Counted from the stretch's first letter, positions 15,739 through 64,000 are shown. The stretch: DNA of 64,000 bases from Methanobacteriota archaeon (GCA_020697715.1 JAEHCO010000001.1:2222-66221); one strand, 5' to 3'. The notes: generated by a model from the sequence alone, not told the origin. Numbers and translations are program-made.

Positions 15739-15743
15739 TTAAA

Positions 15744-18047: not shown

Positions 18048-18051
18048 CTCC

Positions 18052-20025: not shown

Positions 20026-20101
20026 TTAAACATCTCCGATTCCTTCCTATCTATCTCTCTCGGGACTCCCGAAAAAAAGAAAAGGAAGGGCACTAGCTAA
20101 G

Positions 20102-32359: not shown

Positions 32360-32415
32360 CCGGCTTCCTCTGAATGGGAATCGGGTGGCAAGATAATAAC
32401 ATTTCCGTAATATTG

Positions 32416-35400
32416 TTAAGAAATGTCTGGCTCCCCTTGCCCTTCAGCCTCAACCTCAATTTCAGCATCTGGCTCTGGAGATCCTTCCACACCCTCCGGC
32501 TTTCCACCACTTCCACCTCTGGTGAATCCAATAACAGCCAGCACACCCATAACGACAGCCGCGATGACCGCGCCCCAGGCCCATGCCGGGGTCTCGATGA
32601 CCGTGTCCTGTGTGGATGGATCGGCGGTGCCATTATTCCAAACAGTTGTATTATGATATTCTGGAATTGTGTTATTGGCCCATTCGGTCGTGTTGTGGTA
32701 TTCTGGAATTGTCTCATTGTTCCATATTGTTTGATTGTGATACTCTGGAACTGTCTCATTGTTCCAGATGGTCTGATTGTTGTACTCTGGAACTGTCTCA
32801 TTGTTCCAGATGGTCTGATTGTTGTACTCTGTGACAATGAGGAAATCAGAATCCATGAAATCCGCTATGCCGTCATTGTCATCGTCTGGTGGAAGATCAG
32901 TGTCATCCAATGGGTCAAATCCACCTGCAATTTCGACTGCATCGTCCCAGTTATCATTGTCATCATCATCATCCACCGAATCGTCAATTCCATCGCCATC
33001 ATTATCTGATACCATTGTCGGATCAAGTGGGAAGTCATCAGAGGTATCTGGAGTGCCGTCATTGTCATCGTCCAGGTCTGTGGTGTCCGGTTGACCGTCA
33101 TTGTCTGTATCCAGATCCACAGTAAGGGTGAATATCCGGGTGTCATTGGCACCGTTCCCATCATCAACTGTGACCTCGACATTGTAGATACCTGCCTGCG
33201 CATTGTTGGGTGTTCCGGACAATATTCCGTCATTGTCTATTGAAAGCCAGCCTGTGACATTACCGGACAGGTTCCAGGTCGTGGATGGGTCATCTGTGGA
33301 ATCATAATCGACCGAGTACAATGCTCCAGTGTTGGTGCTCGGAACATCTGGGGTTGTTATACTGGGGCCCATGTTCTCCACATCGAAGGTGTAATTATAG
33401 AAGCCTTGGTGGCCCACAGGATCCGTGGCCGTGATATTTGCATAGTATGTGCCTACATCCACGTTCAAAGGAGTTCCAGATATTACTCCAAATGAGGATA
33501 TGGACAGCCAGCCTGTGGCATCGGTTTCCAAGCCCCATTGCATCATGCCAGATCCAGGAAGAGGTTGAAGGGCTGAATCAAAAACGATCATGTAATTTGA
33601 ATCTTCAATAGCCGTGTCCATCATGGTCACTTGCCCTGTCGAGATAATTGTGGAGAACGGAGTCAGGTATGGGTATGAAGTGGTCTCCATAATGCCCCAG
33701 ACATTTGTGAAGTTCCATGGCGGGTTGAATGTCGCTTGCTGCTTCATCTCAGCAGTGGTCTTACCAGTTGCACCAGTAAGTCCGCCAGCGCCGATTCCTA
33801 TTCCTGTTACAGAAGTGTCGGTATCCCAAAAACAATCTATGATAGCGCCAGAATTGTTATATCCGGCAAAGCCACCCGAATTGAGATTACCGATTGCCCT
33901 ACCTGTGCTGTAACAATTCTTTATCGTGCCAATGCCCCATACATATCCTGTGAATCCACCAACCCGGTCATTACCAATAGCATTTCCCATGCTGTAGCAG
34001 TTCGCGATGATACCGTGGTTCTGTCCTGAAAAACCACCAACATATTCAATTGTTCCAATAGAGCTCCCAGTACTGTAGCAGGCAGTGATCGATCCAACTT
34101 CATTGATACCCACAAAACCACCAACATAACTATCTGTTCCAGTTGCACCCCCTGTGCTGTAGCTTGCCGTTATCGGTCCTTCGTTCCATCCTACAAAACC
34201 ACCAATATACATATGTCCACTGGCACTACCTGTGCTGTAGCAATTTGTGATCGTGCCGACATTGGTCATAAACCCCGCGAAGCCCCCAACATAATCAAAA
34301 ATTCCTGTGGCACTGCCAGTGCTGTAGCAATTTGTGACCTGGCTATTATCAATATATCCAACGAAACCACCAACATACATATCTCCATTTACAATACCGG
34401 TGCTGTATGAGTTTATGATCGTGCCGCCAATATTAAATCCAACGAAGCCGCCGACATAATGATCGATCGATGTGGCATCTCCTGTGCTGTAGCAGTTAGA
34501 GGCGGTATTGCCATTAAGACCGATGAAGCCGCCGACATTGTTAGCACCGCTGGCATCTCCTGTGCTGTAGCAGTTAGAGACGGGATTGCCATTAAGACCG
34601 ATGAAGCCACCGACATGATCATCACCACTGGCATTGCCAGTACTGTAGCAGTTAGAGACGAGATTGTTATTAAGACCGATGAAGCCACCATAATAATCTC
34701 CCGATGCAAAAGAGATGGCATTGCCGGTGCTGTAGCAGTTTGTTATAGTGCCACTGTTACTTCCTGTGAATCCTCCTGCATAATCATCGACCCCATTGGC
34801 ATCTCCCGTACTATAGCAATTTATTATGTCTGCCTGATTTTGGCCTACAAAGCCTCCTGTATACTCAACTGCGGTTGACGTGCCAGTACTGTAGCAATTG
34901 GAGATATTACCTACAAAATTAAGTCCTACAAATCCACCAGCGGTCCATGAGATACCATTTACAGAACTGGTACTGTAGCAGTAAGTGATAGTGCCACCAT
35001 TATTTGTTCCAACAAGCCCGCCAACATCAAAGATTCCAGTTACGTATCCTGTGCTGTAACAGTCAGTGATCGTGCCCATATTTCTTGCAACCAAGCCTCC
35101 AACAGTATCTTGGCCATCTATATCTGAATTGTTCAGGCCAATGCCAGTTAAGCTGGCTGTTTCGCTGATAATGCCAAAGAGGCCAACTTGATCTGTGGTG
35201 GAACGGTTTATTATCAAATTAATTATTTCAAAGCCCTGGCCATCCAGAGAGCCATTGAACTTCGATGTGGTATTACCAATTGGTGTAAACCCTGCGCCAG
35301 AATCCCAGATATTGGTAATTGTGGCATCGATATCATTGCCCAATACGTAACTTGCATTCATGTCCAAGCGTATGTAATACAAATCAAGAACATCCTCCAC

Positions 35401-35610
35401 AATGTAAGGGTTGCCAATACTACCATCTCCACCACCGAAAGCTCCTCCGGCAAGTGGGACAGGGCCGGGAACAATTTCCTCACCCTCTACATTCGCGGTC
35501 ATATCCAGCATCACAAAAAGTGAGCTGAGAACTAGCATAGAACTGATAATTAATGTGGCTGTTTTCTTCATGATATCATTTCCCCTATCAATGTGAGGGA
35601 AATGCACCAT
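32416..35610 (-). CDS. Giant surface protein, paralog of 28649-32359 (GLUG repeats, Ig-like, TSP3-like repeats, sequon stalk, TM anchor)
   Basis: 1064 aa; same architecture and near-identical C-terminal module; downstream flank ATAATAACATTTCCGTAATATTGTTAAG duplicated after both paralogs. Confidence 0.75.
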   Translation of the reverse strand: MVHFPHIDRGNDIMKKTATLIISSMLVLSSLFVMLDMTANVEGEEIVPGPVPLAGGAFGGGDGSIGNPYIVEDVLDLYYIRLDMNASYVLGNDIDATITNIWDSGAGFTPIGNTTSKFNGSLDGQGFEIINLIINRSTTDQVGLFGIISETASLTGIGLNNSDIDGQDTVGGLVARNMGTITDCYSTGYVTGIFDVGGLVGTNNGGTITYCYSTSSVNGISWTAGGFVGLNFVGNISNCYSTGTSTAVEYTGGFVGQNQADIINCYSTGDANGVDDYAGGFTGSNSGTITNCYSTGNAISFASGDYYGGFIGLNNNLVSNCYSTGNASGDDHVGGFIGLNGNPVSNCYSTGDASGANNVGGFIGLNGNTASNCYSTGDATSIDHYVGGFVGFNIGGTIINSYSTGIVNGDMYVGGFVGYIDNSQVTNCYSTGSATGIFDYVGGFAGFMTNVGTITNCYSTGSASGHMYIGGFVGWNEGPITASYSTGGATGTDSYVGGFVGINEVGSITACYSTGSSIGTIEYVGGFSGQNHGIIANCYSMGNAIGNDRVGGFTGYVWGIGTIKNCYSTGRAIGNLNSGGFAGYNNSGAIIDCFWDTDTSVTGIGIGAGGLTGATGKTTAEMKQQATFNPPWNFTNVWGIMETTSYPYLTPFSTIISTGQVTMMDTAIEDSNYMIVFDSALQPLPGSGMMQWGLETDATGWLSISSFGVISGTPLNVDVGTYYANITATDPVGHQGFYNYTFDVENMGPSITTPDVPSTNTGALYSVDYDSTDDPSTTWNLSGNVTGWLSIDNDGILSGTPNNAQAGIYNVEVTVDDGNGANDTRIFTLTVDLDTDNDGQPDTTDLDDDNDGTPDTSDDFPLDPTMVSDNDGDGIDDSVDDDDDNDNWDDAVEIAGGFDPLDDTDLPPDDDNDGIADFMDSDFLIVTEYNNQTIWNNETVPEYNNQTIWNNETVPEYHNQTIWNNETIPEYHNTTEWANNTIPEYHNTTVWNNGTADPSTQDTVIETPAWAWGAVIAAVVMGVLAVIGFTRGGSGGKPEGVEGSPEPDAEIEVEAEGQGEPDIS
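32657..32840 (-). repeat. In-frame 42-bp tandem repeat (about 4.4 copies, two identical) encoding 14-aa double-sequon units (PEYHNQTIWNNETV)
   Basis: Units start at 32657, 32699, 32741, 32783, 32825; 32741-32782 is identical to 32783-32824. Confidence 0.8.
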
Positions 35611-44915: not shown

Positions 44916-46472
44916 ATGGCTGAGACACTCACCATACTGAAAGGCGTCAGTATAAATGATGACGGCCAGGTATCCATGGATCTCAGAGAATGGAGCATTG
45001 AGGATATCGTATCCACCATGAGCAAGGTGTTCGATTCGCTGATCGCGGTCTCCGCTATCACCAAAGGTGATGAAAAGGCCTACCTGGAAGCGGATGATTC
45101 CGTAATGAGGATAAAAAATCAATTCAAGTCCCAATTTGTCTCACTTGGCATAGAGAAGCATATCCTGAAGGGAGGTTTGAGATCCCATCTGGACGTGGGA
45201 ATTGAAGGAGCGGATAAGGTATTGGGGGGAGGGATCCCCAAAGGCAATACCATATTATTGCTCGGACCACCTGGAAGTGAGAAATACTTATTCGCATACC
45301 AATATATAATCCAGGGACTGAGGGATGGAAGTGCATGTCTTATCAGCACATCGGTCACTGACCATAAAGGAATGAAGAACAATCTTTCAAAGTTGAAGAT
45401 CAAGCCATCCACATTCGAGGGCCAGGGATTATTGAAGACCATCGACTGGTATTCTTATAAGAAAGAAAATCTGGTGGGTGTGGAGGATGATGGAAATGTT
45501 TTCAGAGCGTCCAAGGACATAACCAATCTTGATATCGCGATAGGATCGGCTGTCAACAAGCTCTCCTTTGCCCCGACAAAAAGAGCGATGCTGGATATAA
45601 TATCACCAGCACTCAATATCTATGATCATTCCATGGTCATAGAGTTCGTTCAAAAGGAGAAGAACCTATTGAAGACTAAGGGCTTCACGACACTTCTGGT
45701 GGTTGAGAGCGGAGCTCATGATGAAAGAACATTGTCCACTCTTAAACATCTTTCAGACGGTGTGTTGATTATCGAGAAAGGCAGCAAAGGCCAGCTTACA
45801 TTCAAAGTAGAAGCTTTATCTGGCATGAAGTTCGACCAGAAGGCCCATCGCATCAAGGTGACCAAGAAAGGTCTGGAGATCATTTCCAATGTGAAGGATG
45901 AAAGCTCCATATTACAGGATCTGCAAGAAATACCAGCGATTGACAAAATAACAGCAGAAAAACTTATCGAGGCTGGCTTCACCAGCATGGAAAAATTGGA
46001 AAAGGCGAAGAAGTCGGAACTGGAAAGTGTTACAGGCATTGATGCGAATGTGTCCAATAAGATCTACGAATACATACATTCTGTAGAATATTCAAAGAAG
46101 ATAATAGAGAGAAAGAGCCAGAACTGGGTAAGGAAAGGATTGCAATTCATTGGTAAAAAAGAGATAGACAAGGGAATGCAAAGTTTCCAGAGGGCGATAG
46201 AGATCCACCCCAAGAACTCAAGTGCGTGGCTGGAGATGGCCAGGCTTCTTTACAATGAAGGTAGCAAAGATGATTCCAGAAAATGCTTTGACAAAGCTTT
46301 GGAGATCGATCCCACATTGGCAAAAGAATGGTTCGATAAGACCGAGGTACAGGAAGCTGGATGGGGCTGTCCCGTATGTGGGTTCTACATAAAGGAAGAA
46401 AATATCGAATGCCCTGAATGTGGTGTCATATTCAGTGTTGAAGAAAGAGAGAGCCAGAGGGATCAAATATGA
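44916..46472 (+). CDS. KaiC/RecA-like domain protein fused to helix-hairpin-helix, TPR and C-terminal zinc ribbon
   Basis: 518 aa; KaiC-like core (GIEGADKVLGGGIPKGNTILLLGPPGSEKY) with atypical P-loop lacking GK[ST]; HhH (IPAIDKITAEKLIEAGF…VTGIDANVSNKI); TPR-like pair; CPVCG…CPECG; start uncertain. Confidence 0.65.
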   Translation: MAETLTILKGVSINDDGQVSMDLREWSIEDIVSTMSKVFDSLIAVSAITKGDEKAYLEADDSVMRIKNQFKSQFVSLGIEKHILKGGLRSHLDVGIEGADKVLGGGIPKGNTILLLGPPGSEKYLFAYQYIIQGLRDGSACLISTSVTDHKGMKNNLSKLKIKPSTFEGQGLLKTIDWYSYKKENLVGVEDDGNVFRASKDITNLDIAIGSAVNKLSFAPTKRAMLDIISPALNIYDHSMVIEFVQKEKNLLKTKGFTTLLVVESGAHDERTLSTLKHLSDGVLIIEKGSKGQLTFKVEALSGMKFDQKAHRIKVTKKGLEIISNVKDESSILQDLQEIPAIDKITAEKLIEAGFTSMEKLEKAKKSELESVTGIDANVSNKIYEYIHSVEYSKKIIERKSQNWVRKGLQFIGKKEIDKGMQSFQRAIEIHPKNSSAWLEMARLLYNEGSKDDSRKCFDKALEIDPTLAKEWFDKTEVQEAGWGCPVCGFYIKEENIECPECGVIFSVEERESQRDQI

Positions 46473-47413
46473 GCTTGGGCAAGAAGGCCTTCGCCTCGGC
46501 TCCCTGTAGCTTGACATTATTGGGATATGACCTACACGATCATATTGGAACCTCTGTGGGGATCGCACTGGATAAGCGAATAAAATGTGAGACCATGATA
46601 TCGGAAAGCTTCATGGTCAATAACGATGTCTATGATGGGAACAAATATCCTTATGTTAGGGCGGCTCTGCTTCATGGATGGAGCGATATTGACACCCCTG
46701 TCTCATTCGAGATAGATGATATTACGATCCCAGATAATGTCAGTGGCTATGGACCTGGACATATCGCCTCCACCCTGGGTTCCCTGTCAATGATGAACGA
46801 CAATCTGATGTTCGAGGATATCTTATTGAAAGGCCATGAGATATTGAAGGAGAATGATAGCAAGATGGGGGTATTGGGACTATCCACCGCTATCAATGGA
46901 TATGGCACTGTATTATCCAATGAGATCGGCAAAGGCCACTTATGGAGTGTGGGAAAGGGGAAGAAAGCGAGGCACATCCATCATCTCGACATGCCGGATA
47001 TGACATTCGTTCTCGCATTTCAGAAGGGTGGATCTGGGAAAGAGGATTTCTCTGGAAAGTTCAATAATTTCGCCAGGCGTCAGAGTGGCTTCTTCAAAGA
47101 CATGCTGAAGGATTCGGCAAAGCTGGCTAAAAAAGGTCTTCAGGCTTTGGAGCGTGGGGATATGGAAGGGCTTGGCCAGGCCATGAACGAGACCGACAAG
47201 TTGACGAAGACGATGGGCATGTACACGCCAGAACTGAAAGTCGTGGCCGACCTGTGCAGGAGCCAGGCATTTGGAGCGAGGCTTTGCATATCGGAGAAAC
47301 ATGCGTATGTGGTGACTTTGACCAATGAGCCGGAAGAATTGGCCAGCAATATCCGGGAAAAGGGACATATCGCGATGGTCGCTGGCATATCCCGCGATGG
47401 ATTGCAGATATAA
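46469..47413 (+). CDS. GHMP-kinase-like protein (divergent; function unassigned)
   Basis: 314 aa; weak GHMP-type motifs (APCSLTLLGYDLHDH…, Gly/Ser-rich loop PGHIASTLGS, C-terminal GARLCISEKHAYVVTL); 4-nt overlap with upstream gene. Confidence 0.4.
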   Translation: MSLGKKAFASAPCSLTLLGYDLHDHIGTSVGIALDKRIKCETMISESFMVNNDVYDGNKYPYVRAALLHGWSDIDTPVSFEIDDITIPDNVSGYGPGHIASTLGSLSMMNDNLMFEDILLKGHEILKENDSKMGVLGLSTAINGYGTVLSNEIGKGHLWSVGKGKKARHIHHLDMPDMTFVLAFQKGGSGKEDFSGKFNNFARRQSGFFKDMLKDSAKLAKKGLQALERGDMEGLGQAMNETDKLTKTMGMYTPELKVVADLCRSQAFGARLCISEKHAYVVTLTNEPEELASNIREKGHIAMVAGISRDGLQI

Positions 47414-52724: not shown

Positions 52725-53231
52725 TTACATATTCAGTAAGCTGCCGCCGCTCATCTGGATCTCTTGTCCGTCTAGGTCGACTATTGTAATTTCGTATTCA
52801 CCAGCCTGTGCGTTTGCCCAGGTCAATGTTACGTAGTCTCCACTGTTTATAAGAGAGTTGGCTCCGATATCAGTTGCTACTGCAGTGATATCCTGTCCAG
52901 CGCCAGATTTTGCAACAGAAATTGCTGTTGGCGGATTGGCATCAAACGATAATACATAACTAGTGGAATTAACACCAGCTATTGTTATTGTTATGTCTGT
53001 CCATTCGATATCTGTGCTGAACGATCCGAACTTCATTGTTGCGGTTGTTGAAGAGTCCTTATCGAGCTCTGACCAGTTTCCTGTTGCAGCTACACTGCCT
53101 CCACCGCCAAAGTCCATGACCATGACGTAAAGCACAGCAGCCAAAACCACGGTGATAGCGACCATCAAAATGGTAGCAATAACCGGAGACACTGCGTCGT
53201 CCTTCTTTCTTATATTCCATGTGTTTTTCAT
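52725..53231 (-). CDS. Archaeal type IV pilin-like protein (class III signal peptide)
   Basis: 168 aa; N-terminus MKNTWNIRKKDDAVSPVIATILMVAITVVLAAVLYV matches the prepilin-peptidase-processed motif; beta-rich Thr/Ser-rich C-terminal domain. Confidence 0.65.
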   Translation of the reverse strand: MKNTWNIRKKDDAVSPVIATILMVAITVVLAAVLYVMVMDFGGGGSVAATGNWSELDKDSSTTATMKFGSFSTDIEWTDITITIAGVNSTSYVLSFDANPPTAISVAKSGAGQDITAVATDIGANSLINSGDYVTLTWANAQAGEYEITIVDLDGQEIQMSGGSLLNM

Positions 53232-53367: not shown

Positions 53368-54120
53368 TCATATGTTCTTTGCGGATATACCCTTATCATC
53401 TATGTTGCATGATAAGATCTTAGTTTTCTCTGGGTGATTCCTCACCTTCCTTATCAGCAGATTCCTTGTGAAAGTGGAGCCCTCTCTGAGCCTCTCCAGT
53501 TCTATTGTGATATCCACTATATCCTGGACACCACTTTCCACGCGATTGTCAAAAACCCCTTTCAGCATCGTGACGAGGGCTATGCCATTATTTAGTTGAG
53601 TATGAGCCTTGATGGTCCTTATGGCGGAAAGCACATCAGCCTCATCATAATACTCTAGGAAGAAATCCAGAGAATCCAATACGATCCTAAATGGTGGTTT
53701 GAGCTTCGATATACCATATGTGAGCGTGGTCAGGAAATTGACATCCATGCTTTGTTCAGCCTGGGCGGCATTGAATTGCTTGATATCTCGCATTTTCAAT
53801 CCTTCCTGGCGATACTTGCTAACTTCCAGGTTCTTGGCCAGAACCTTCTCATAATACATCTTGCCGATATTCACGACCCTGATATCCTGCTTCCACCCGA
53901 ATTCACCCATGGCGGTCTTAACAGCCTCATCACTTTCAGTGGTGGAGAAATAGGTAACGTTCTCATTTCCTATTCCAGCTGCTGCAAACTGCTTGGCAAA
54001 TAGCTCGACACCGGTTCCGGGTATACCGGTGATCAATATCGTACATCCTTTCGGAACACCATCCATCAGGGATTTATCCAGCTCCTTCACACCTATGCTG
54101 GTAGTTTCGATCAAACTCAT
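53368..54120 (-). CDS. KaiC/RecA-like ATPase domain protein (third of triad)
   Basis: 250 aa; P-loop-like GIPGTGVELF (non-canonical) and KaiC-type fold; 4-nt overlap with upstream gene. Confidence 0.7.
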   Translation of the reverse strand: MSLIETTSIGVKELDKSLMDGVPKGCTILITGIPGTGVELFAKQFAAAGIGNENVTYFSTTESDEAVKTAMGEFGWKQDIRVVNIGKMYYEKVLAKNLEVSKYRQEGLKMRDIKQFNAAQAEQSMDVNFLTTLTYGISKLKPPFRIVLDSLDFFLEYYDEADVLSAIRTIKAHTQLNNGIALVTMLKGVFDNRVESGVQDIVDITIELERLREGSTFTRNLLIRKVRNHPEKTKILSCNIDDKGISAKNI

Positions 54121-54689
54121 TCACCCCCTATGGTTATCGTGGTATCACATACCAACTTCATCATATTGGATATCTCTTCAGTGCTGAACTCTTCCATTGT
54201 GAAGACCATGGAATAGGCATCCTTGGCTCTCAGATTGTTTATGAATATATGCAAGAATTCGGACAGGATCTTCATATTATTGTGAATACCCAGGGCATTT
54301 ATGGCATCTAAAACAATGACATTGTTCTTGCCATCTGATTTCCTTATGAGGTATTCCACCTTCAGCATGATGTTCTCCAGCATGGTGGGGCTTTCCACAT
54401 AGAGCACGTTCTTGTATTTCTTGGCCCCTCCGACCATGATATGGGAAACACAGTCCACGAAGTAAATATTGGTAAGATCGATCTCCAGGATCTTCAAGAC
54501 ATCGATTATTGAATGTGATGGAATAGCCACCGTGATGTAGATGACATTCAAATTCTTCTTATTGGCGAAGATATCCACTATTCCCCTTATGGCATCGAAA
54601 TAACTATCACTGACTATCTTCAGGTTTATAGCGGATGAAGGTGGGAGCTCATGAAGCTCATCTGCCAGATCGCCAGGTGATTTGATCAT
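54117..54689 (-). CDS. KaiC/RecA-like fold protein lacking recognisable Walker A (second of triad)
   Basis: 190 aa; matches C-terminal part of KaiC-like fold (NVIVLDAINALG) without P-loop; 4-nt overlaps on both sides. Confidence 0.5.
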   Translation of the reverse strand: MIKSPGDLADELHELPPSSAINLKIVSDSYFDAIRGIVDIFANKKNLNVIYITVAIPSHSIIDVLKILEIDLTNIYFVDCVSHIMVGGAKKYKNVLYVESPTMLENIMLKVEYLIRKSDGKNNVIVLDAINALGIHNNMKILSEFLHIFINNLRAKDAYSMVFTMEEFSTEEISNMMKLVCDTTITIGGE

Positions 54690-55438
54690 AGACCACCACC
54701 GCCCTTGAGCAATGGAACAAGTAATACGCCCGCGGGTGTCAGATCCAGAACATATTTCGCTCTGGAATGTACTGTTCCTCTCATTTTCACCACTTGCAAT
54801 GTCCTCAGAAGGTCTCCCCTCCGCTCATAATTCCCCATAAGGACGATACCATCCGCGATGGCTTCCTCCACCCCGTAGAGCGAGTACCTGTCGGCAGATG
54901 GTGATATTTCGGATATCAGAAGACTGGTGCAACCCCTGGTAGAAAGAGCTTTTCCTATCTTCAATATGAATTCCCTTATCTTCTCCTCTGTTTTCAATCT
55001 GTAGCAAACGGAGGTTATGGAATCTATGACCAATCTTTTGACAGAAAGCTCATCCACGAGGTTACCCAGTGCACGAACCAGAGTGTCGACATCCTCCAGA
55101 CTGAACTCCACATTTGTCAAACCCAATCTCTCATAGATGACTGGCATATCGACGAATGCCAGTTTTCCTGTTTTTATCAGGGATTCCTCAAAGAAATCAT
55201 ATGGGATGACATTCGTGGTAAGTTTCTCAGATGATTCTGTAACTGAAACAAAAAGTGAATTCTCATCGGCCAGAGCCCCATGCACTAAAAATTCAAGGGA
55301 CAGTGTGGTCTTTCCAGTACCGCAACTGCCTGTGAACAAAATGGTATTTCCTCTGGGTATTCCTCCATTTAGAATATTATCCAAACCATCTATTCCTGTA
55401 ACGCAACGTTCTCTCTCAATGATATTTTCTGAGGCCAT
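54686..55438 (-). CDS. KaiC/RecA-like ATPase (first of triad; canonical Walker A)
   Basis: 250 aa; GIDGLDNILNGGIPRGNTILFTGSCGTGKTTL Walker A, Walker B (RLVIDSI), KaiC-type C-terminus. Confidence 0.75.
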   Translation of the reverse strand: MASENIIERERCVTGIDGLDNILNGGIPRGNTILFTGSCGTGKTTLSLEFLVHGALADENSLFVSVTESSEKLTTNVIPYDFFEESLIKTGKLAFVDMPVIYERLGLTNVEFSLEDVDTLVRALGNLVDELSVKRLVIDSITSVCYRLKTEEKIREFILKIGKALSTRGCTSLLISEISPSADRYSLYGVEEAIADGIVLMGNYERRGDLLRTLQVVKMRGTVHSRAKYVLDLTPAGVLLVPLLKGGGGL

Positions 55439-55591: not shown

Positions 55592-58500
55592 TTGAGCGAT
55601 TCCACACTTTACCTATGCCCATTTTGTGGCGCCTTCATAAACGAGGAGGCCGAGGTTTGTCCCAATTGCAGCAAACCATTGGAAGAGGAGGTGGAAGGTG
55701 GATTCGAGAAAGAGCTGGATGATCTTATAGATGAAGATCTCAATGCCATGTCAGGAAGTGAATCCTGTCCCAGATGTGGAAAGCAGCTGGAAGAAGGATC
55801 ATTAGAATGCCTGGATTGCAATATGAAGATCGAGGATGGACTGGAACCCGCATCTGAAGGAGAAGAGGAAGGAGTGGCTCTATTCCTTTGTTCAGGATGT
55901 GGGGCTTTTATCAATTCGAATTCCAATGAATGCCCCAAATGTGGTATTTCACTTGATGATGAGGCTGAAGAAGAACATGATTTTGTAGAATATGATAATG
56001 AATTGCTGGATCTCCTTGTTGAGAATGAGCCAGATGAAGAAGATGAGCTTATCCTGGAGTTGGATAGCATAGATGATCCAGAAGATCTGATATCGGTCAT
56101 TGACAAGATGCCGGATATTGAAGATGAAGAGCTATTCGATGATGAACCAGATATCGTACTTGATCTTGATCTGGCAGATGACGATCCGGAAGGCGATCTT
56201 CTTCACATGAACATTGATGATGAAATAGAGAAGACCAGGATAGTGGAATCCATTAGCGAAAGGGTAGCCGGAGAAGTGGCTATCGAAAGTGATAGTGGAG
56301 ATGAGATCATGCTCTGTGGAGAGTGTGGAGCATTTGTCTCCCAATCTTCAAAGGAATGTAATGTTTGTGGAAATGACATAAGACCTGGCAGCCATCTGGC
56401 TATTGAAAAAGATGAGATCCCCTCAGAGAATGATGGCGAAAATACAGAGACCGCCCTGAGGTCCATACTTGGGATATTGGATGATGTCATACTTGATCCG
56501 GATCCAATGGCAGATCATGAGGATGATATTGGCATATGCCAGAAATGTGGAGCTTTCATACCTCATGGCGAGAGTGCGTGTCCCGTATGTCATGCGGACA
56601 AAAAGAGTCTTCCAGATATCATATACACGGAACTGCCTATAGATGATCATGATTCTATGTCCATTTGCGGGGATTGTGGAGCTTTTGTCAAATCCGATTC
56701 AGATACATGTAATGTTTGTGGAGCCAAGGTCGATGCCGATATGCTAAGATCCATAGAGCCAGATGATGTCTTGGAGATGGGGATGGATGCGGATGACCCA
56801 ATGGATATTCTGAAAAAAGCACTGGGTGTGCTGGAATTACGAGATACGACACCAGAGGAAAGGATCGGTGGAGAACTGGATCTATGTCCGGATTGTGGTG
56901 CTTTCGTCTCAGCTAATGCCAAATCATGCTCCATTTGTGGCAGCGATCTGATCCAGGGCACGGATATAAGCCTGGATGATGGCATAGTCATGGATCTGGA
57001 TGATGGATCGGTCATTCTTTCAGACAGTGTTTGTCCCAATTGTGGCTCCAAGTTCGGGGTCGGGGCAGGAGATTGTGAGGTTTGTGGCTTCACATTCCTC
57101 GGTGATGAAAGTGATCATGACGAGAAGGAAATGTCCTATGAAGACAGGGTGGACATATCGGATATCATAGAATTCGAGGTTCCAGAATTGACAAAGGAAA
57201 GCGCTATCGATCACCTCAATGAAATGGAAGATGATATGGATGATCTAATTCTGGATGAAGTAAAGCCTGAATCATCTGCCGAGGTTAAGAGTGGGGAACT
57301 ATCCAATGAAGAAAAGCTGGCCAGGATAGAAAAGGCCTATGAAGAAGGGCAACTTAGCAAGGCCAATTACATAATCAACAAGGCCAAGTTCTACGGACTT
57401 GTTCAGGAAATGAATGAGATAGAAGATGACCTGGATGAGCTTTTGATAGATATTGATGAGACGATGGCCGAGACCGTGGAAGTGCCGACCGAAGAGGATG
57501 AAATAGAAAGTCTGGAGCTTGGAGATCTTCATCTGAATATCGATCCAGATGCTCAGGACGACGAGGATACCCAGCCAGATGTGGAAATGGAATATGATGA
57601 TCTGTCCCTTTCAGAAGATGACATCAAAGAAGGCATCCATGACGGAAAATATGATGATATCATCGAATTCGATGATCAGGATCTGGATCTAACCCAGGAT
57701 GATACTTATCAGGAAGATCTGGATGAGCATATTGAAACTTATGAGGAAGAGGATGAGACCTCGAAAGAGGATGAAACCTCGGATGAGGATGTCATATACG
57801 AAGAGGTCGAGGTCTATGTGGACGAAGATGGCCAGGAAATAGAATATGAAGAGGTCGAGGTAAATGAGGATGACATCGAAGAGTATGAGGAGGATGTCGA
57901 TGATCCTGAAGGAACCGATTTAGATGATCATGACCCCGAGGAAACATATTTCGAAGAGGAAGACGAGATCCATGTACCCTTCAGATCACATGCCATGGCG
58001 GAGACCACTGGAGGACCGCAATATCTCAATCATTCCGGATGGGAATATGGTGTCATCGCATCACTTCTTACATCCCTCTTCTATGTCGCGCTTTCCTCAT
58101 ACATACCCATCAATCCCATATCATTGGCCATAATATTTGGCGTGATACTTATCTTCGCCTTCATAATGATGGTCACATCAAGATCCATATTCATGAAAGG
58201 CGATCTGTACCGTGGTTCCGTGTTCATGATAGGCGGAGTGATAATTTCTTTCATCCTGCTCCATTGGTTCGCGGATATCATGATCGATGATCCGATGGTG
58301 GACAAAATGCTACTGTCGATAGGAATAATGATGATCGGTATAGGAATAATCTGGATAAGGGGCAAGATCCGATATATCCATCTCTGGTTATCCGGCACCA
58401 TATTCCTATTTCTGTTCTCCATAGGAGAGCTTTATTATTTCGAGCAATGGGCCTATTCCCCCATCCAGCCACCAGGAGCGATAGTGGCTGGGATCGGGAT

Positions 58501-59152
58501 ATCTCTGATCGTGGCCAGTTCCATACTGCTGGCCTATGAGAGAAGTCTACACACTTCGATAGAGACGGAGATCGTTCGAGGAGATATGGACTATCTCAAT
58601 AAGAATTACAAGAAGGCATTGCATTCCTATGATAGGGCGCTTGAGAAAAGCACCCTGAAGACCGAATCCGCATTGAAGGCAGATGATACCAGGGAATACG
58701 ATGTCCCATGGTACAGTAAAGGTGCGACCCTGATATTGATGGGTAATTTGAAAGAAGGAATTGAATGTCTGGATATGGCTCTATCCATAAATCCCAATAA
58801 CGAGGTCGCATGGGTGAGCAAGGGAAATGCCTATTCAAAGCTCGGGGACATGAGCAGTGCTTTGGAATCATATAACAATGCATTGATCGCGAACCCCAGA
58901 TACATAATAGCCTGGAACAATAGAGGTAATGCATTTGCCAGGAAGGAGAATTATATCGAAGCCCTGAAGAACTATAACAGGGCGATCAAGCTGGATCCAG
59001 ATTATAAGGACGCGTGGATCAATAAGGGCTATGTCCTGATGAAGATGGGAAAGCAGGATGAGGCGCTCAAATGTGTGTCGATGATAGGGGAGAAAAAGAT
59101 GGGACAGCATGGAGCAGCCAGTACCAATGGCAGTACTAAGGCCTCTGCCTGA
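55592..59152 (+). CDS. Giant membrane protein: eight N-terminal CxxC-N(9-11)-CxxC zinc ribbons, acidic linker, about six TM helices, C-terminal TPR repeats
   Basis: 1186 aa, TTG start; ribbons such as CPFCGAFINEEAEVCPNCSKP, CSGCGAFINSNSNECPKCGIS, CGDCGAFVKSDSDTCNVCGAK; hydrophobic block (…VIASLLTSLFYVALSSY…); four or more 34-aa TPR units. Confidence 0.7.
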   Translation: MSDSTLYLCPFCGAFINEEAEVCPNCSKPLEEEVEGGFEKELDDLIDEDLNAMSGSESCPRCGKQLEEGSLECLDCNMKIEDGLEPASEGEEEGVALFLCSGCGAFINSNSNECPKCGISLDDEAEEEHDFVEYDNELLDLLVENEPDEEDELILELDSIDDPEDLISVIDKMPDIEDEELFDDEPDIVLDLDLADDDPEGDLLHMNIDDEIEKTRIVESISERVAGEVAIESDSGDEIMLCGECGAFVSQSSKECNVCGNDIRPGSHLAIEKDEIPSENDGENTETALRSILGILDDVILDPDPMADHEDDIGICQKCGAFIPHGESACPVCHADKKSLPDIIYTELPIDDHDSMSICGDCGAFVKSDSDTCNVCGAKVDADMLRSIEPDDVLEMGMDADDPMDILKKALGVLELRDTTPEERIGGELDLCPDCGAFVSANAKSCSICGSDLIQGTDISLDDGIVMDLDDGSVILSDSVCPNCGSKFGVGAGDCEVCGFTFLGDESDHDEKEMSYEDRVDISDIIEFEVPELTKESAIDHLNEMEDDMDDLILDEVKPESSAEVKSGELSNEEKLARIEKAYEEGQLSKANYIINKAKFYGLVQEMNEIEDDLDELLIDIDETMAETVEVPTEEDEIESLELGDLHLNIDPDAQDDEDTQPDVEMEYDDLSLSEDDIKEGIHDGKYDDIIEFDDQDLDLTQDDTYQEDLDEHIETYEEEDETSKEDETSDEDVIYEEVEVYVDEDGQEIEYEEVEVNEDDIEEYEEDVDDPEGTDLDDHDPEETYFEEEDEIHVPFRSHAMAETTGGPQYLNHSGWEYGVIASLLTSLFYVALSSYIPINPISLAIIFGVILIFAFIMMVTSRSIFMKGDLYRGSVFMIGGVIISFILLHWFADIMIDDPMVDKMLLSIGIMMIGIGIIWIRGKIRYIHLWLSGTIFLFLFSIGELYYFEQWAYSPIQPPGAIVAGIGISLIVASSILLAYERSLHTSIETEIVRGDMDYLNKNYKKALHSYDRALEKSTLKTESALKADDTREYDVPWYSKGATLILMGNLKEGIECLDMALSINPNNEVAWVSKGNAYSKLGDMSSALESYNNALIANPRYIIAWNNRGNAFARKENYIEALKNYNRAIKLDPDYKDAWINKGYVLMKMGKQDEALKCVSMIGEKKMGQHGAASTNGSTKASA

Positions 59153-62100
59153 CCTGCATGATGCATATTCCGATCATGGTTGCCAGGATCAATGAGAAGA
59201 TATTACTGAACTCGTCAATAATGATTATATCGACCGATGCCACATCACTATCCGGCAGAAGCATGTAGCCACTGGAAGTAGTGTAATTCAATAGTGCCCA
59301 ATTATCAACAGGGCCAGCAAGTGGCGTCGCATTGACTGTCACATTGATGAATATCGCGTATGAGCCGGGCGCGATATTTGTGAAGTACCAGCTAATATCC
59401 TGACCCAGTATTGTCGAAGGAGCTGGAACCGCGCTGTCGAAGATAATTCCAGAGGGTAATGTGTCATTTATCCAGACATTGCCCGCATTGGTCGAGCCAG
59501 TATTATTGTAGAAGATGGTGTACATGATGGTGTCATTGGCATAGGCGGTTGTGACATTGGCGGTCTTCTGGATATCTATAACAGGCCGCTGGCAGGTGAC
59601 ATTGGCCCATGAGGTCTCGGTTCCCAGAGAGTATGTCAAAGTGGCGGAATTGGATAATAATTCCAGATCGGTCGCATTGGCATTCACCTGCACCTCGATG
59701 GTTATGAGATTCGTACTCTGTCTGGGAATCTGGGTGAAGGTCCAGCCAAGATCCTGGCCAACTATCGTCACGGGCAATGGATTGGCGACCACATAATCGA
59801 CATTCGCTGGAAGTACATCATCTATCTGAACATTCCAGGCCTTTCCCAAACCTGTATTATTGTACCATATCTCGTAGGTTATCAGATCGCCTGGTTGGGC
59901 AGTGGTCACATTGGCTGTTTTGGATATGGACATATTGGGGAGTTTAGGTGCCAGTGGATCAATGGGGTCAGAAAGCTCTATTTCTTCTAGCCCAGTCGAT
60001 CGGGATGACCTTGCGGCCTCGGCATTGTGCCTGATACTATTGGTCTCATCCTCCATACCCAGCCAGTCTGACATTTCGATGGCGATGGAGATATCAGATT
60101 GCCTGGATATTCCAAGAAGTCCAAGGGGCACGCCTACCTCAATCCGGGATAGATCATTGGCCCCGGATGCTTTGCCGAGATATGTCCATGGAGTGCTCGC
60201 GGACATCTCCTCATATGAGTATATCTCGCTGGATAGTATCTTATTGTATTTGCCAGTTATAAGGATTAAATGGTCAGCTCCAAGCTGACCATTTAAATAA
60301 TGGCCTGTTTCGATATCATCATCCGCGTCTATGTATATCAACAGATGATCCATACCTTTTCTCTCAATGTGCCTCACAGGGCCGATATAACGGCTTATGA
60401 ACCTGCCAGAATAATTCGCATCATAGCTCTGGGGGATGGTGGTATTGAGCCAATTGTCAACACCTCCAGCATCGTGATCCACTACACCGTCGCCATCACG
60501 ATCCCCATTAGAATTCGCATCATCGACACCGTCATTATTAAAATCATGAGCATATGAGCCATCAGGGCCATCCAGCACATCCGGGACACCATCATTGTCC
60601 GAGTCCAAATTAGGAGAAGTCTGAGTGACATTTTGAGCCGATGGTGTTGATCTGATCCTCAGCACTGGTATTGCGGATCCTCCCATGGCCACCCCACCCA
60701 CGGATGTGTAGATGTTCAGCTCATCATCCATATTCATGCGGTAATCCCTGATATCCACATTCCTGTTCAGGAACTTCAGCTTTGCAGGATCCTTTCCTGG
60801 AACTACCTGATCATTGGCCGCATCGATATTTGGAGGTGTCGATTGCCAGTCTCCAAATGCTCCATCTATCGTCGTACCAGATGGTTGGCCATAGTGTTTG
60901 AGAGATGGTGCACTTACTATCATGTCCAAGTTGACGGTGTCGATCATGCCCACATTCAAAGGCATGAGGCCGATGGTCTGGCCATTCTCTGTCCCGGTCA
61001 ATGTGGATGAAAGAATAAGTTGAGTGATTTCAGACGGCGATAGTGGCATGGGGTCGAATAATTCCAAATGAAGGACCTGGCCGTCCACCTGCATCGAGGA
61101 TAGGCCAACCACCTCGTCAATGACAGGTTCTATCAGGCCATTATCATTCATATCCTTGTATAATGTGAATTGTGAAAGAATATCCGGACTGGATGTTCCC
61201 AATATACGGAAGTCGAGTGAGTCGATCTCCACCTCATCCTCATAGCATACGAGTTCGAAGGAGCAAGAGAGAACATCATCTCTTGCCAGTATATCATTCG
61301 AAGGGTCAGTGATCGACCTTATAGACAGGGATGCGGTATTGGGGATCATTATGCCATCGGAAGTGTCTGTATTTCCTTCGGAATCACTTGTCATGACAAG
61401 GACTGATGGTGACTGGTCTGCCAGATCGCTCATGGCCGTTCTCAGTTCGATCTTATCTCCACTCACCTTACTGGATACCGAGGATATATACATGAACCCA
61501 CTCCAGTCATCAGGATCATGATCATTATCGAATCTCAATAGTTCAGATGCTTCCACATGATTATCATAACCATGAACATCTATCAGGACATCGGCGCCCA
61601 GATTGTCGATGGAATAGCCAGTGCGATTATTCCCATCTGCATCTAGGAAGATATAGATGGAATCCACACCACTGCCATTCGCACTACCACCTTCCATCAT
61701 GGTCCCGTCAACTTGTAGGAAAATGTCAAGATATGGATGATCCAATGAAAATCTAGTATCTACCAGATCTATATCAGGGTTTATGACATCCGATACTTCA
61801 TCGGCATAGGATGTGAACTTATTCCAGTCACTGAAAGCTCCGTCTATCGAGATATCTCGTGTGTCACCATTATTCATATTCTCGGTGAATATCGGCACAT
61901 AGAGTATCAAAGATATCACAATGACAATGGATAAAAAGCCGATCTTCCACCTACGTGCTTTTTGACGATTCCTTCTCAATATAGCCATATCCTGCTTTCT
62001 CTCAACCAAGGAATCACCATTTATGAAACCATCGCCATTAACTATGCCAGAGCCGTTGACCAGGCCATTCGTTAACCCATTGGTCAAGCCATTGGTACGA

Positions 62101-63953
62101 CCTTGACCATTTGTGATTCCATTCGTCCTACCCTGCCCATTCGTTAACCCATTGGTACGGCCTTGACCATTGGTGAGACCGTTCGTTCTTCCCATACCAT
62201 TTGTAAGGCCGTTCGTCCTACCCTGGCCATTAGTTAATCCATGGGCACCACCTTGACCATTGGTCAAACCATTTGTCCTACCTTGACCATTGGTAAAGCC
62301 TTGAGCATGACCGAATTTCCTTCTCATCTTTTCAGAAAGTTCAAGATCATTGGAATGGGATATCTTCTCGGCATCCACATCGTATACCAGAGAATCCAAT
62401 ATGGACTCCAATTCTTCTTCCGTATAGTCCTCTTCTTGATCGTCCACACACTCATCCTGATCGATGACCTCGAATGACTGGTCATCATCATCGTCCTCAT
62501 CATCTAAATCAAATTCAAGGGAATCAAGAAGATCCTGCATCTCTTCATCTGACTCGACCTCATCCATATCCGTATAGCCCAATTCCAATGGATCTTCAAT
62601 TATCTCTCCATCTAAACCGAAAATAATGGGAGTTGGAGCAGTATCCGGCTCATCAGTCTCATCAAGATCAAGAACAAGAGATTCGAGAAGATCGTCCATG
62701 TCTTCATCTGGCTCATCTTCAAGGATTAGCTCGGGTTCATGTTCAATATCATCTTCAAACTCTTCACCCTCAAGATCCAGACCCAATTCTGCCAGGTCGT
62801 CCAATCCATCCAATTCCAATAAGAGCCAGTCCTCTTTGAATGCCTCATCAGAGCCCTGGTCAAGATCAGATATATCGTCATCATCGTGCTCGACCACCTC
62901 GATCCTTTCCAGCTCTTCATCCTTCAATTCCAATAATTCCAGGGAGAACATCTCGTCCTCCAATTCAGCCATTTCAGATCTGAGGATATCGTCCTTCATC
63001 ATGCCCTTCTCTTCGATCTCCATCTGCTTACAGTTCGGGCATGAACTGGAATCTCCCATAACGAAGGTGCCGCAGGACTCGCAGACCGTGAACCCTATGG
63101 TTGGAACTGTCTCGAGAAGGTCTATTTCCTCTTCAGGGTCCTCATCCGGTTCATCCAGCTCCCTGGATAATACCTCATTCACTTCCTTGGACAGGACATT
63201 CACATCTCCGATCTCATCCTCCAGATCACCCAGGGAATTGATGATGGCCTCATCCAGCTTGAATTCCTTCATGTCTATGACATCGTCACAGTTCGGACAG
63301 CTTTCTGCCCCACTGCCCAGGAATGCTCCACAGGATCCGCATATACCAATATCTAGATCCGGGGCGGTCTCAAGCCTATCCACCTCTGGTTCATCCACCA
63401 GGTCCATTTCCAATATCTCATCGATCTCGGAAGATAGCATCTCGCCACATTTGGGACACGTGTCCACATCCCCCTCCACAAATGTCCCGCAGGAACTGCA
63501 CATTTGGAAATCGATCTCCGGTATCGTCTCAAGGAGATCGTCATGCTCATCTGCCAGTTCATTGCCCAATGCTTCTGCGGTGATATCTTGACTGAATATC
63601 TCACCACAGACCCCGCAATCCTCGGATATGGAGCTGATCAATGCACCACAACTCGAGCATCTGGATAATATCTCATCAGTTACATCATCCTCATCTTCCT
63701 CCACCGTGGTGTAACATATTGGACAGACCGCACTGTGCTCGTTCAGAAATGCTCCGCAGTTCCCACATAGGTAAAATTTGATATCAGCAGCATCTTCGCC
63801 AACTGAAAGCCCCAGGAAATTGATTATGTTCTCGATCGCGCCTTTCTCATCCAAGATAAGATCCGAGGTCGAAATACGAGTGCCAGTAATGGAGCCGACA
63901 TCGACTGGCTGACCCAATTGAACATGCATCCGATTCACAATATCATGGTTCAC
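59136..63953 (-). CDS. Giant membrane/surface protein: five or more N-terminal zinc ribbons, acidic region, GxTNG decapeptide repeats, TM, about 1000-aa extracellular region with DUF11-like repeat domains, C-terminal TM
   Basis: 1605 aa from GTG start; reading frame stays open upstream to the window end, so the N-terminus may be truncated; ribbons CGNCGAFLNEHSAVCPICYT etc.; repeats GLTNGQGRTN about nine times; domains TANVTTAQPGDLITYEIWYNNTG and TANVTTAYANDTIMYTIFYNNTG. Confidence 0.7.
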   Translation of the reverse strand: MNHDIVNRMHVQLGQPVDVGSITGTRISTSDLILDEKGAIENIINFLGLSVGEDAADIKFYLCGNCGAFLNEHSAVCPICYTTVEEDEDDVTDEILSRCSSCGALISSISEDCGVCGEIFSQDITAEALGNELADEHDDLLETIPEIDFQMCSSCGTFVEGDVDTCPKCGEMLSSEIDEILEMDLVDEPEVDRLETAPDLDIGICGSCGAFLGSGAESCPNCDDVIDMKEFKLDEAIINSLGDLEDEIGDVNVLSKEVNEVLSRELDEPDEDPEEEIDLLETVPTIGFTVCESCGTFVMGDSSSCPNCKQMEIEEKGMMKDDILRSEMAELEDEMFSLELLELKDEELERIEVVEHDDDDISDLDQGSDEAFKEDWLLLELDGLDDLAELGLDLEGEEFEDDIEHEPELILEDEPDEDMDDLLESLVLDLDETDEPDTAPTPIIFGLDGEIIEDPLELGYTDMDEVESDEEMQDLLDSLEFDLDDEDDDDDQSFEVIDQDECVDDQEEDYTEEELESILDSLVYDVDAEKISHSNDLELSEKMRRKFGHAQGFTNGQGRTNGLTNGQGGAHGLTNGQGRTNGLTNGMGRTNGLTNGQGRTNGLTNGQGRTNGITNGQGRTNGLTNGLTNGLVNGSGIVNGDGFINGDSLVERKQDMAILRRNRQKARRWKIGFLSIVIVISLILYVPIFTENMNNGDTRDISIDGAFSDWNKFTSYADEVSDVINPDIDLVDTRFSLDHPYLDIFLQVDGTMMEGGSANGSGVDSIYIFLDADGNNRTGYSIDNLGADVLIDVHGYDNHVEASELLRFDNDHDPDDWSGFMYISSVSSKVSGDKIELRTAMSDLADQSPSVLVMTSDSEGNTDTSDGIMIPNTASLSIRSITDPSNDILARDDVLSCSFELVCYEDEVEIDSLDFRILGTSSPDILSQFTLYKDMNDNGLIEPVIDEVVGLSSMQVDGQVLHLELFDPMPLSPSEITQLILSSTLTGTENGQTIGLMPLNVGMIDTVNLDMIVSAPSLKHYGQPSGTTIDGAFGDWQSTPPNIDAANDQVVPGKDPAKLKFLNRNVDIRDYRMNMDDELNIYTSVGGVAMGGSAIPVLRIRSTPSAQNVTQTSPNLDSDNDGVPDVLDGPDGSYAHDFNNDGVDDANSNGDRDGDGVVDHDAGGVDNWLNTTIPQSYDANYSGRFISRYIGPVRHIERKGMDHLLIYIDADDDIETGHYLNGQLGADHLILITGKYNKILSSEIYSYEEMSASTPWTYLGKASGANDLSRIEVGVPLGLLGISRQSDISIAIEMSDWLGMEDETNSIRHNAEAARSSRSTGLEEIELSDPIDPLAPKLPNMSISKTANVTTAQPGDLITYEIWYNNTGLGKAWNVQIDDVLPANVDYVVANPLPVTIVGQDLGWTFTQIPRQSTNLITIEVQVNANATDLELLSNSATLTYSLGTETSWANVTCQRPVIDIQKTANVTTAYANDTIMYTIFYNNTGSTNAGNVWINDTLPSGIIFDSAVPAPSTILGQDISWYFTNIAPGSYAIFINVTVNATPLAGPVDNWALLNYTTSSGYMLLPDSDVASVDIIIIDEFSNIFSLILATMIGICIMQVRQRP
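62020..62310 (-). repeat. In-frame 30-bp tandem repeat (about 9 copies) encoding GLTNGQGRTN decapeptides
   Basis: Recurrent CCATTGGT…CCTTGACC units on plus strand at 30-bp period inside the giant gene. Confidence 0.6.
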
Positions 63954-64000
63954 GAAACTGGGAGAGATGACATGAACGGACGTGATATCCTTATCCTGCA

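Follow-up and report, generated by a model that had tools for sequence, protein, structure and literature searches.

A very large zinc-ribbon membrane protein linked to KaiC-like ATPases in an uncultured Thermoplasmatota archaeon, with a candidate role as a surface receptor

What does a protein do that joins zinc ribbons inside the cell to a very large beta-rich domain outside of it? The question is raised by gene A, which is located at the end of a 64,000-nt stretch of DNA (the window) from an archaeon deposited as Methanobacteriota (GCA_020697715.1, JAEHCO010000001.1:2222-66221). The original prediction, made from the sequence alone, had described A as a giant protein with an N-terminal zinc-ribbon array, GxTNG repeats, a transmembrane (TM) helix, an extracellular beta-rich region with DUF11-like domains and a C-terminal TM helix, and had paired it with a convergent neighbor, gene B, that also encodes zinc ribbons. 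The analysis presented here identifies A as a genuine membrane protein of very large size, encoded by an uncultured archaeon of the Thermoplasmatota. It is best read as the sensing or anchoring part of a module that also contains a winged-helix protein and a KaiC-like ATPase, and its role in this module may be one in signalling. Other genes in the window mark it as part of an archaeal chromosome, including those for eRF1, ArgRS, topoisomerase VI, deoxyhypusine synthase, SMC, an archaeal type IV pilin and KaiC-like ATPases.

The stop codon of gene A (TAG) is located at positions 59136-59138, and from there the reading frame on the minus strand is uninterrupted up to the edge of the window. The features of A are as follows, where residue 1 of the gene product corresponds to base 63998, as it does for all residue numbers given below:

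59136-64000, minus strand: gene A, with the 5' end cut by the window edge; 1620 codons and the stop codon are in the window
63819-63998, minus strand: C-terminal ~60 residues of a predicted inactivated KaiC-like (iKaiC) domain, with the remainder beyond the window
63030-63767, minus strand: five Cys4 zinc ribbons (CxxCG[AT][FL]-x7-CxxC), predicted to be cytoplasmic, from motif positions and Pfam
62319-63008, minus strand: polyacidic linker, residues 331-560, from composition
62016-62300, minus strand: GxTNG repeats rich in Gly, Asn and Thr, residues 567-661, net cationic and predicted to be disordered
61884-61997, minus strand: basic juxtamembrane patch and TM helix 1, residues 668-705, with the N-terminus predicted inside
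61344-61865, minus strand: ectodomain module 1, a CBM9/DOMON-like beta-sandwich starting from IDGAFSDW, from the structural model
60891-61331, minus strand: Ig-like beta-sandwich between the modules, residues ~890-1036, from the structural model
60039-60881, minus strand: ectodomain module 2, a second CBM9/DOMON-like sandwich starting from IDGAFGDW, from the structural model
60450-60617, minus strand: Asp-rich, thrombospondin-type-3-like insert in module 2, from the sequence
59628-59933, minus strand: CLIPPER/DUF11 domain 1, from Pfam PF01345 and TIGR01451
59259-59585, minus strand: CLIPPER/DUF11 domain 2, from Pfam PF01345, TIGR01451 and the alignment with 9IFR
59139-59231, minus strand: C-terminal anchor, IDEF followed by a TM helix and RQRP, the latter two at residues 1597-1620

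We compared gene A to loci from other genomes, which are numbered with the prefix L. The best of these is L003, a 257-kb contig from the metagenome-assembled genome (MAG) SF.bin11, which is collinear with the window, including three adjacent KaiC-like genes (the KaiC triplet) and pilin genes. A syntenic ortholog of A is located at L003:7790-13186; it is 1798 aa long and shows 71% identity to A over the full length. The unbroken reading frame and the collinearity with this ortholog place the ribbons and the extracellular part in a single gene, and all predicted features of the protein were located in the order first described. The suggestion that the protein may continue beyond the open window edge also agrees with the ortholog, which contains 147 further N-terminal residues. 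Residue 1 of A in the window pairs with residue 148 of the ortholog, and about 147 codons of A are therefore expected beyond the window, which implies a complete gene product of about 1767 aa.

The N-terminal domain of the L003 ortholog, of about 210 aa, has no match in Pfam. A phmmer search with this domain matches residues 1-60 of A, and the domain shares 36% identity with the N-terminus of a paralog of 1801 aa on contig L001. Its relationship to KaiC was seen by profile-profile comparison only; an HHalign comparison of 20 such N-terminal domains to 32 stand-alone KaiC-like ATPases gave a probability of 97.1% and an E-value of 5.8e-11 over 188 columns, while a BLASTP comparison of the domain to the adjacent KaiC gave no signal. 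The Walker A P-loop, GxxxxGK[ST], is lost in the L003 ortholog, in which the position reads SYAVMALEEQTY ("VMALEEQTY"), and other members of the subfamily have the degenerate motif GPxGxEK. Since the motif is absent or degenerate, the N-terminal domain of A is predicted to be an inactivated KaiC-like domain with a RecA/KaiC core (PF06745 superfamily).

Immediately upstream of the ortholog in L003 are genes for a 238-aa KaiC-like ATPase, which matches PF06745 at 4e-64, and for a 234-aa protein with a family profile that matches the ArsR-family structure 2p4w at 4.4e-7. In the family of the 234-aa protein, HTH_20 was found in nine out of ten members, and most members have HTH_20, MarR or TrmB signals. 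The gene order in L003 is winged-helix protein, KaiC and A.

How general this arrangement is was examined in the relatives of A. An exhaustive HMMER scan with residues 560-1345 of A as the query identified 829 representative clusters at E<=1e-3, of which 265 remained at a cutoff of E<=1e-30. This is far more than was obtained from a word-indexed search with A, which gave one full-length relative only and understated the family. In species-representative genomes, 225 A-type matches were confirmed by tblastn, and 79 loci were kept from a scan of these genomes with a 6-sequence alignment. All named sources among the 79 loci are MAGs of Thermoplasmatota (Thermoplasmata, Methanomassiliicoccales and DHVE2/Aciduliprofundum). 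The A-type family is a large one that is restricted to Thermoplasmatota, and it has no name; none was given by the sources listed among the matches. Uncultured Thermoplasmatota of sediments, groundwater, hydrothermal settings and guts contain A-type genes in abundance. They also occur in multiple copies, with four genes in tandem at L049 (1-19389), each with a fused KaiC-like domain, two different A-type subtypes on one contig at L001 (10001-27293), and at least three genes at two sites of a 5.2-Mb Thermoplasmata chromosome (CP070751.1; L042, L048 and L053).

A motif survey of the best 150 relatives and of consensus alignments revealed a core order of GxxNG units (3-35 per relative where present), a basic patch, a TM helix and two IDGxFxDW modules located about 320 residues apart, followed by variable LTD and DUF11 modules and an end composed of (I/V)PEF, a hydrophobic helix and RRRK. 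The cytoplasmic head is variable and may include either a combination of helix-hairpin-helix motifs, 0-15 zinc ribbons and tetratricopeptide repeats (TPR), or an iKaiC or KaiC domain. The window also encodes a soluble protein (44916-46472, plus strand) that reuses the domains found in the heads of the A-type proteins, namely a KaiC-like domain of the "IDWYSYK" subfamily with the P-loop GPPGSEKY, helix-hairpin-helix motifs and TPR. Its gene is followed by an overlapping open reading frame (ORF) of 314 aa (46469-47413, plus strand) with no Pfam match.

To quantify the association with KaiC, ORFs were called in 82 loci and searched with the window proteins, which gave approximate counts for the 60 A-type genes that could be evaluated over at least 2.5 kb upstream. 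For 32 of these genes, either a KaiC-like gene was present on the same strand no more than 2.5 kb upstream, or a KaiC-like domain was fused to the gene product. They include 31 of the 40 genes for proteins with at least one zinc ribbon, as compared to only one of the 20 genes for proteins without ribbons. Likewise, 27 of 37 stand-alone KaiC ORFs were located inside the upstream intervals, which make up about 12% of the sequence. A-type proteins fused to a KaiC domain that looks intact were identified in L010, L012, L017, L022 and L049. KaiC linkage is a conserved feature of the ribbon-bearing family. As in L003, the A-type gene of most ribbon-bearing relatives is the final one of three, after those for the winged-helix protein and the KaiC-like ATPase. 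Two layouts were observed. In one, KaiC (~292 aa) is followed by a gap of about 1 kb, which contains a helix-turn-helix gene in L001, and by an A-type gene with a helix-hairpin-helix, ribbon and TPR head. In the other, the order is winged-helix protein, KaiC (~238 aa) and an A-type gene with an iKaiC and ribbon head, with a variant in which KaiC is fused to A. Gene A in the window is assigned to this second layout from its sequence and that of its ortholog.

The remainder of the cytoplasmic region consists of ribbons, linker and repeats. The five ribbons have the pattern CxxC-x10-CxxC and are located at residues 78-95, 114-131, 167-184, 220-237 and 306-323, and the predicted array thus proved to contain five Cys4 units, with the Pfam family DZR (PF12773) at 49.0 bits, above the gathering cutoff of 27.3. 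Zn_ribbon_3 (PF13248) was recovered at 30.0 bits (cutoff 27), and Zn_ribbon_15 was also among the Pfam matches of the array. Asp and Glu account for 35% of residues 331-610, and the net charge across residues 1-560 is -155. The GxTNG region consists of about 19 units that alternate between 4 and 6 residues (GLTN and GQGRTN), which makes the earlier description of nine 10-aa GLTNGQGRTN repeats a fair one for residues 567-661. Tandem Repeats Finder reported a period of 30 nt and 7.3 copies in this region, and a regular-expression search found GxTNG runs in no other gene of the window. In the AlphaFold2 (AF2) model the tract has a predicted local distance difference test (pLDDT) score of 27-31 and no secondary structure, although a low pLDDT is no proof of disorder. 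We also considered a pentapeptide-repeat beta-solenoid (A(D/N)LXX), which was rejected from the 4/6-residue units, the central Gly, the lack of a Pfam match and the unstructured AF2 model. The tract is best read as a conserved, probably flexible and cationic juxtamembrane tether.

The topology claimed for A agrees with the hydropathy, the basic flanks and the distribution of sequons and Cys residues. TM helix 1 has a hydropathy peak of 2.72, and the AF2 model contains a continuous helix (model residues 109-149) that includes the patch and the TM segment as one. The positive-inside rule is satisfied at both TM helices, with basic residues on the cytoplasmic flanks. There are 17 N-x-S/T sequons in the ectodomain, as compared to one in 685 cytoplasmic residues, and 3 Cys residues outside as compared to 21 inside. 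These patterns suggest that the N-terminal region is cytoplasmic and that residues ~706-1595 are extracellular. The TM helix and the beta-rich ectodomain are hence present as predicted, while the ectodomain is closer to 890 aa than to the 1000 aa first estimated.

No Pfam family, including the CBM9 and DOMON models, was found over residues 706-1345 of A at E<=0.1. An AF2 model of the ectodomain, built on an alignment of 49 homologs, has a mean pLDDT of 89 and a predicted template modelling score of 0.83. In this model both IDGxFxDW modules have a predicted CBM9/DOMON-like fold, and they can be superposed on the structures 1i82, 7uwu, 2ivf_C and 1ulv at a sequence identity of 6-15%. A Foldseek search with the whole chain of the ectodomain model identified no structure with the same domain arrangement. 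The Asp columns D433, D435, D437, D467 and D469 of the module 2 insert are invariant (alignments A3 and A4), and the DxDxDG-type motifs suggest that the insert may bind calcium.

The two modules are followed by two DUF11 copies (residues 1356-1580), which were recovered in the profile search with 72.9 bits for PF01345 (cutoff 24.6) and 69.4 bits for TIGR01451 (cutoff 24), as had been anticipated. DUF11 has been renamed CLIPPER and described as a domain that is stabilised by an isopeptide bond and forms the stalks of fibrillar adhesins (PMC12617251). An alignment of copy 2 with the CLIPPER crystal structure 9IFR has an E-value of 4e-5, and the Lys of its "IQK" motif is opposite that of "VVK" in 9IFR, which by our numbering of the chain is the isopeptide Lys, K715 (PMC12617251), while copy 1 reads "ISK"; of the isopeptide triad (Lys, Asn/Asp and catalytic acid), only the Lys was mapped.

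The protein ends with the expected second TM helix, followed by RQRP. In the family, the consensus for this end is (I/V)PEF followed by a hydrophobic helix and RRRK, and a regular expression classed 59 of 93 tails as PEF-like. The tail of A (IDEF...RQRP) has no match to the PEF-CTERM model TIGR03024 at E<=10, nor has the IDEF tail of the ortholog, and a bona fide PEF-CTERM signal in A is ruled out at the level of hidden Markov models (HMMs). When the tails of ten relatives were compared to TIGR03024, one passed (24.7, as compared to the cutoff of 23) and four scored 16.5-21.4. A paralog within the same MAG as the L003 ortholog retains IPEF. From these sequences, the anchor of A appears to be a degenerate descendant of the (I/V)PEF-TM-RRRK (PEF-CTERM-like) signal of the family, and the variant may mark the loss of archaeosortase processing. 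No archaeosortase gene was identified among the larger ORFs scanned in the window.

We compared A to systems that share some of its parts. Makarova, Galperin and Koonin reportedly described KaiC-centred archaeal signalling modules, including iKaiC-domain proteins, in 2017. KaiC-family ATPases and inactivated KaiC domains have been proposed as archaeal signalling hubs (cited in PMC5847659), and KaiC genes have been linked to type IV pilus loci (PMC4858521). A resembles such modules in its predicted KaiC-like N-terminal domain with a lost P-loop, in that genes of its family are tightly linked to those for a stand-alone KaiC-like ATPase and for a winged-helix protein, and in that KaiC and pilin genes are located in one neighborhood in the window. 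Unlike these modules, A combines a GxTNG tether and zinc-ribbon arrays with a giant ectodomain that resembles an adhesin, an architecture not found in the searched literature. The RsgI anti-sigma-I sensors of Clostridium thermocellum (PMC10328401, PMC6852018) are similar in that they combine a carbohydrate-binding-type module, one TM helix and a cytoplasmic domain, which in RsgI controls a co-encoded transcription factor; the counterpart in A would be the winged-helix protein. However, the sequences are unrelated, the output of A would consist of the iKaiC domain and ribbons with the KaiC-like ATPase and the winged-helix protein rather than of an anti-sigma domain and SigI, and A has a second, C-terminal membrane anchor and CLIPPER stalks.

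Like the fibrillar adhesins with CLIPPER stalks (PMC12617251), A has two CLIPPER domains beside the C-terminal anchor, with the putative binding modules distal to the stalk. In contrast to these adhesins, it has no N-terminal signal peptide, and about 830 predicted cytoplasmic residues, of which 685 are in the window, precede the N-terminal TM helix. With this helix and the cytoplasmic region, the ectodomain of A is predicted to be anchored at each end and connected to domains in the cytoplasm. The family consensus, with (I/V)PEF, a hydrophobic helix and an Arg/Lys tail, is like that of the PEF-CTERM substrates of archaeosortases (TIGR03024), but A and its ortholog read IDEF and have no HMM match. 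Also, the two modules of A differ from the known CBM9/DOMON sandwiches (1i82, 7uwu, 2ivf_C and 1ulv) in the lack of a Pfam match, and module 2 differs in its large Asp-rich insert. The folds of A are all of known kinds and signalling through KaiC hubs is an existing concept, while Pfam, NCBIfam and the literature searched gave no record of the architecture of A, its family, the GxTNG tract or the correlation between ribbons and KaiC.

The second part of the original prediction concerned the partner gene, for which the relevant features are as follows:

55592-59152, plus strand: gene B, with eight zinc ribbons, an acidic linker, six TM helices and a TPR domain predicted to be cytoplasmic, from Pfam and hydropathy
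59136-59152, no strand assigned: convergent overlap of A and B in the stop region, CTAAGGCCTCTGCCTGA, 17 nt
53368-55438, minus strand: three KaiC-like genes (the KaiC triplet) divergent from B, in the same arrangement in L003 and L082

The convergent overlap of 17 nt at the 3' ends is as described, with the TGA stop codon of B at 59150-59152 and the TAG stop codon of A at 59136-59138. The overlap CTAAGGCCTCTGCCTGA is identical in L003 (13170-13186), whereas the codons on either side differ; this would be expected where two reading frames constrain the same bases. No intrinsic terminator was found in the overlap region with a bacterial-type scan, which carries little weight for an archaeon. The six hydropathy peaks in B indicate that both of its ends are cytoplasmic. 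The B family is well populated in Thermoplasmata and annotated merely as "tetratricopeptide repeat protein".

Outside of the window, the convergent pair with the same overlap was found in L003 only, and L003 is collinear over the whole region, such that descent alone explains the common arrangement. At the 79 other A-type loci, a B-type neighbor was absent from all 79, and the TM domain of B matches the window and L003 only. A B homolog in L082 with 47% identity is divergent from three KaiC-like genes and has a TPD-family gene (PF14811), not an A-type gene, downstream. At the B-family loci L083-85 and L002, neither a KaiC gene nor an A-type gene is adjacent. A conserved pairing of the two genes is thus weakly supported, by their adjacency in the window and in the collinear L003. 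Furthermore, the mean best-match identity of the ribbons in A is 0.48 to those of B, as compared to 0.42-0.49 to those of other family members. The similarity between A and B is not elevated, which suggests one common ribbon type and no paralogy specific to the pair; the ribbons of A and B are of the same type, as had been claimed, while a particular closeness is ruled out. The pairing is a lineage-specific juxtaposition of two KaiC-associated membrane proteins, for which a functional link is conceivable, and B is a separate zinc-ribbon/6-TM/TPR scaffold associated with KaiC and no family-wide partner of A.

The KaiC triplet is the recurrent neighbor of B. The gene nearest to B has the canonical Walker A motif GSCGTGKT, unlike the others; the third gene reads GIPGTGVE, and the middle gene of 190 aa has no Walker A motif and a weak match to DUF7090. 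Genes for archaeal type IV pilins are located directly beside the triplet, both in the window (52725-53231, minus strand) and in L003 (19094-20592), which fits the reported association of KaiC with type IV pili (PMC4858521). Of the window ORFs that were scanned, none was recognised as a gene for a pilus ATPase or TadC.

We consider it about evenly balanced whether A is a cell-surface receptor-adhesin that acts as a signalling receptor. The ectodomain would then bind an extracellular glycan, polymer or surface, and occupancy, clustering or tension could alter the manner in which the iKaiC and zinc-ribbon platform engages its cognate KaiC-like ATPase. This engagement would in turn control the winged-helix regulator, and the outcome would be an outside-in branch of the KaiC-centred signalling network of archaea. 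A bolder form of the idea, possible but doubtful, is an integrin-like outside-in system, in which the ribbons and the iKaiC domain would serve as a multivalent docking platform for rings of the KaiC-like ATPase, with the GxTNG tract as the transducer and the winged-helix protein as the output; control of the regulator by KaiC would then depend on tension or binding at the CBM9-like/CLIPPER ectodomain. Several observations weigh against a receptor. The signalling step is drawn solely from the order of genes and from fusions; neither the KaiC and winged-helix genes upstream nor most of the iKaiC domain are in the window, and they are predicted from the 71%-identical ortholog. KaiC was detected with four phmmer queries on naive ORF calls, such that the linkage counts are approximate, and one third of the family, which is ribbon-less and mostly of the DHVE2 type, has no KaiC linkage. 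CBM9/DOMON-like folds also bind haem or serve as plain spacers. Finally, the double anchoring, by the N-terminal TM helix and a C-terminal TM helix or lipid, along with the CLIPPER stalks, would suit a structural envelope protein at least as well.

A purely structural protein is nevertheless rather unlikely in our view. Here, A would be a doubly anchored and glycosylated envelope or adhesion protein, similar to a glycocalyx or S-layer protein, in which the ribbons, the acidic linker and the GxTNG tract provide a cytoplasmic tether while the KaiC-like ATPase serves in assembly, export or turnover. Fibrillar adhesins and surface proteins of archaea typically have CLIPPER stalks and a C-terminus that resembles a sorting signal (PMC12617251). 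The high density of sequons outside, the several paralogs per genome with tandem arrays such as that in L049, the further putative giant surface proteins in the same window and the ribbon-less members without KaiC linkage also agree with such a role. However, a winged-helix gene is located within the conserved module, and we know of no secretion or assembly ATPase role for KaiC-like proteins, which we count against the structural alternative. The KaiC and iKaiC fusions, moreover, resemble those described for archaeal signalling proteins (PMC5847659). That A and B form an obligate two-protein complex, in which the shared ribbons and the overlap reflect a common function and B supplies the TPR module that A lacks, is improbable, even if the pair recurs with the identical 17-nt overlap in L003. 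Many A-type relatives (A1/A2 consensus; P0001) have TPR in cis between the ribbons and the GxTNG units, and TPR-bearing genes follow short A-type genes in L072, L076 and L080, which makes TPR in trans plausible. Yet the adjacency is confined to two collinear and closely related genomes, no A-type gene adjoins those of the B family in L082, L083-85 and L002, the relatives of A with an iKaiC domain that were inspected have no separate adjoining TPR gene, the ribbon similarity between A and B is not raised, and the convergent orientation excludes co-transcription. An artefact, be it a chimera or misassembly, a pseudogene or two genes mistaken for one, would be suggested by nothing but the unusual length and the low-complexity stretches, and is effectively refuted by the 1620 uninterrupted codons, the whole-length collinearity at 71% identity with an independent assembly, the same architecture in most of the best 150 relatives and the folded domains modelled at high confidence.

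KaiC-like ATPases have been proposed as the main signalling hubs of archaea, with inputs that are largely unknown, and the A-type family represents one concrete and testable candidate for such an input: a surface protein with glycan-binding-type modules that is fused to, or located beside, KaiC-like domains and a DNA-binding protein. The integrin-like version, if true, would give the KaiC signalling network of archaea its first defined sensor input. Pfam and NCBIfam have no entry for at least three of the sequence elements described here, namely the pair of IDGxFxDW sandwiches, the GxTNG tract and the KaiC-like subfamily marked by "IDWYSYK".

Elsewhere in the window, two tandem giant proteins of 1236 and 1064 aa with GLUG motifs and He_PIG/Big_9 domains, and a protein of 833 aa with a WD40 propeller and Ig domains, are encoded on the minus strand at 28649-35610 and 26090-28591. 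These represent a putative cluster of further large surface proteins. An Opp-type ATP-binding cassette (ABC) transporter with unusually large components was identified at 13604-23089 on the minus strand; it includes a 767-aa permease with an insert similar to a beta-propeller (PQQ_2), a 657-aa permease and a 995-aa solute-binding protein with Big_1. Also on the minus strand, a 223-aa ORF at 11436-12107 matches the Pfam family CesT_Tir_1, which is type III chaperone-like and odd for an archaeon, and it adjoins a gene for a TPR protein of 392 aa (10236-11414).

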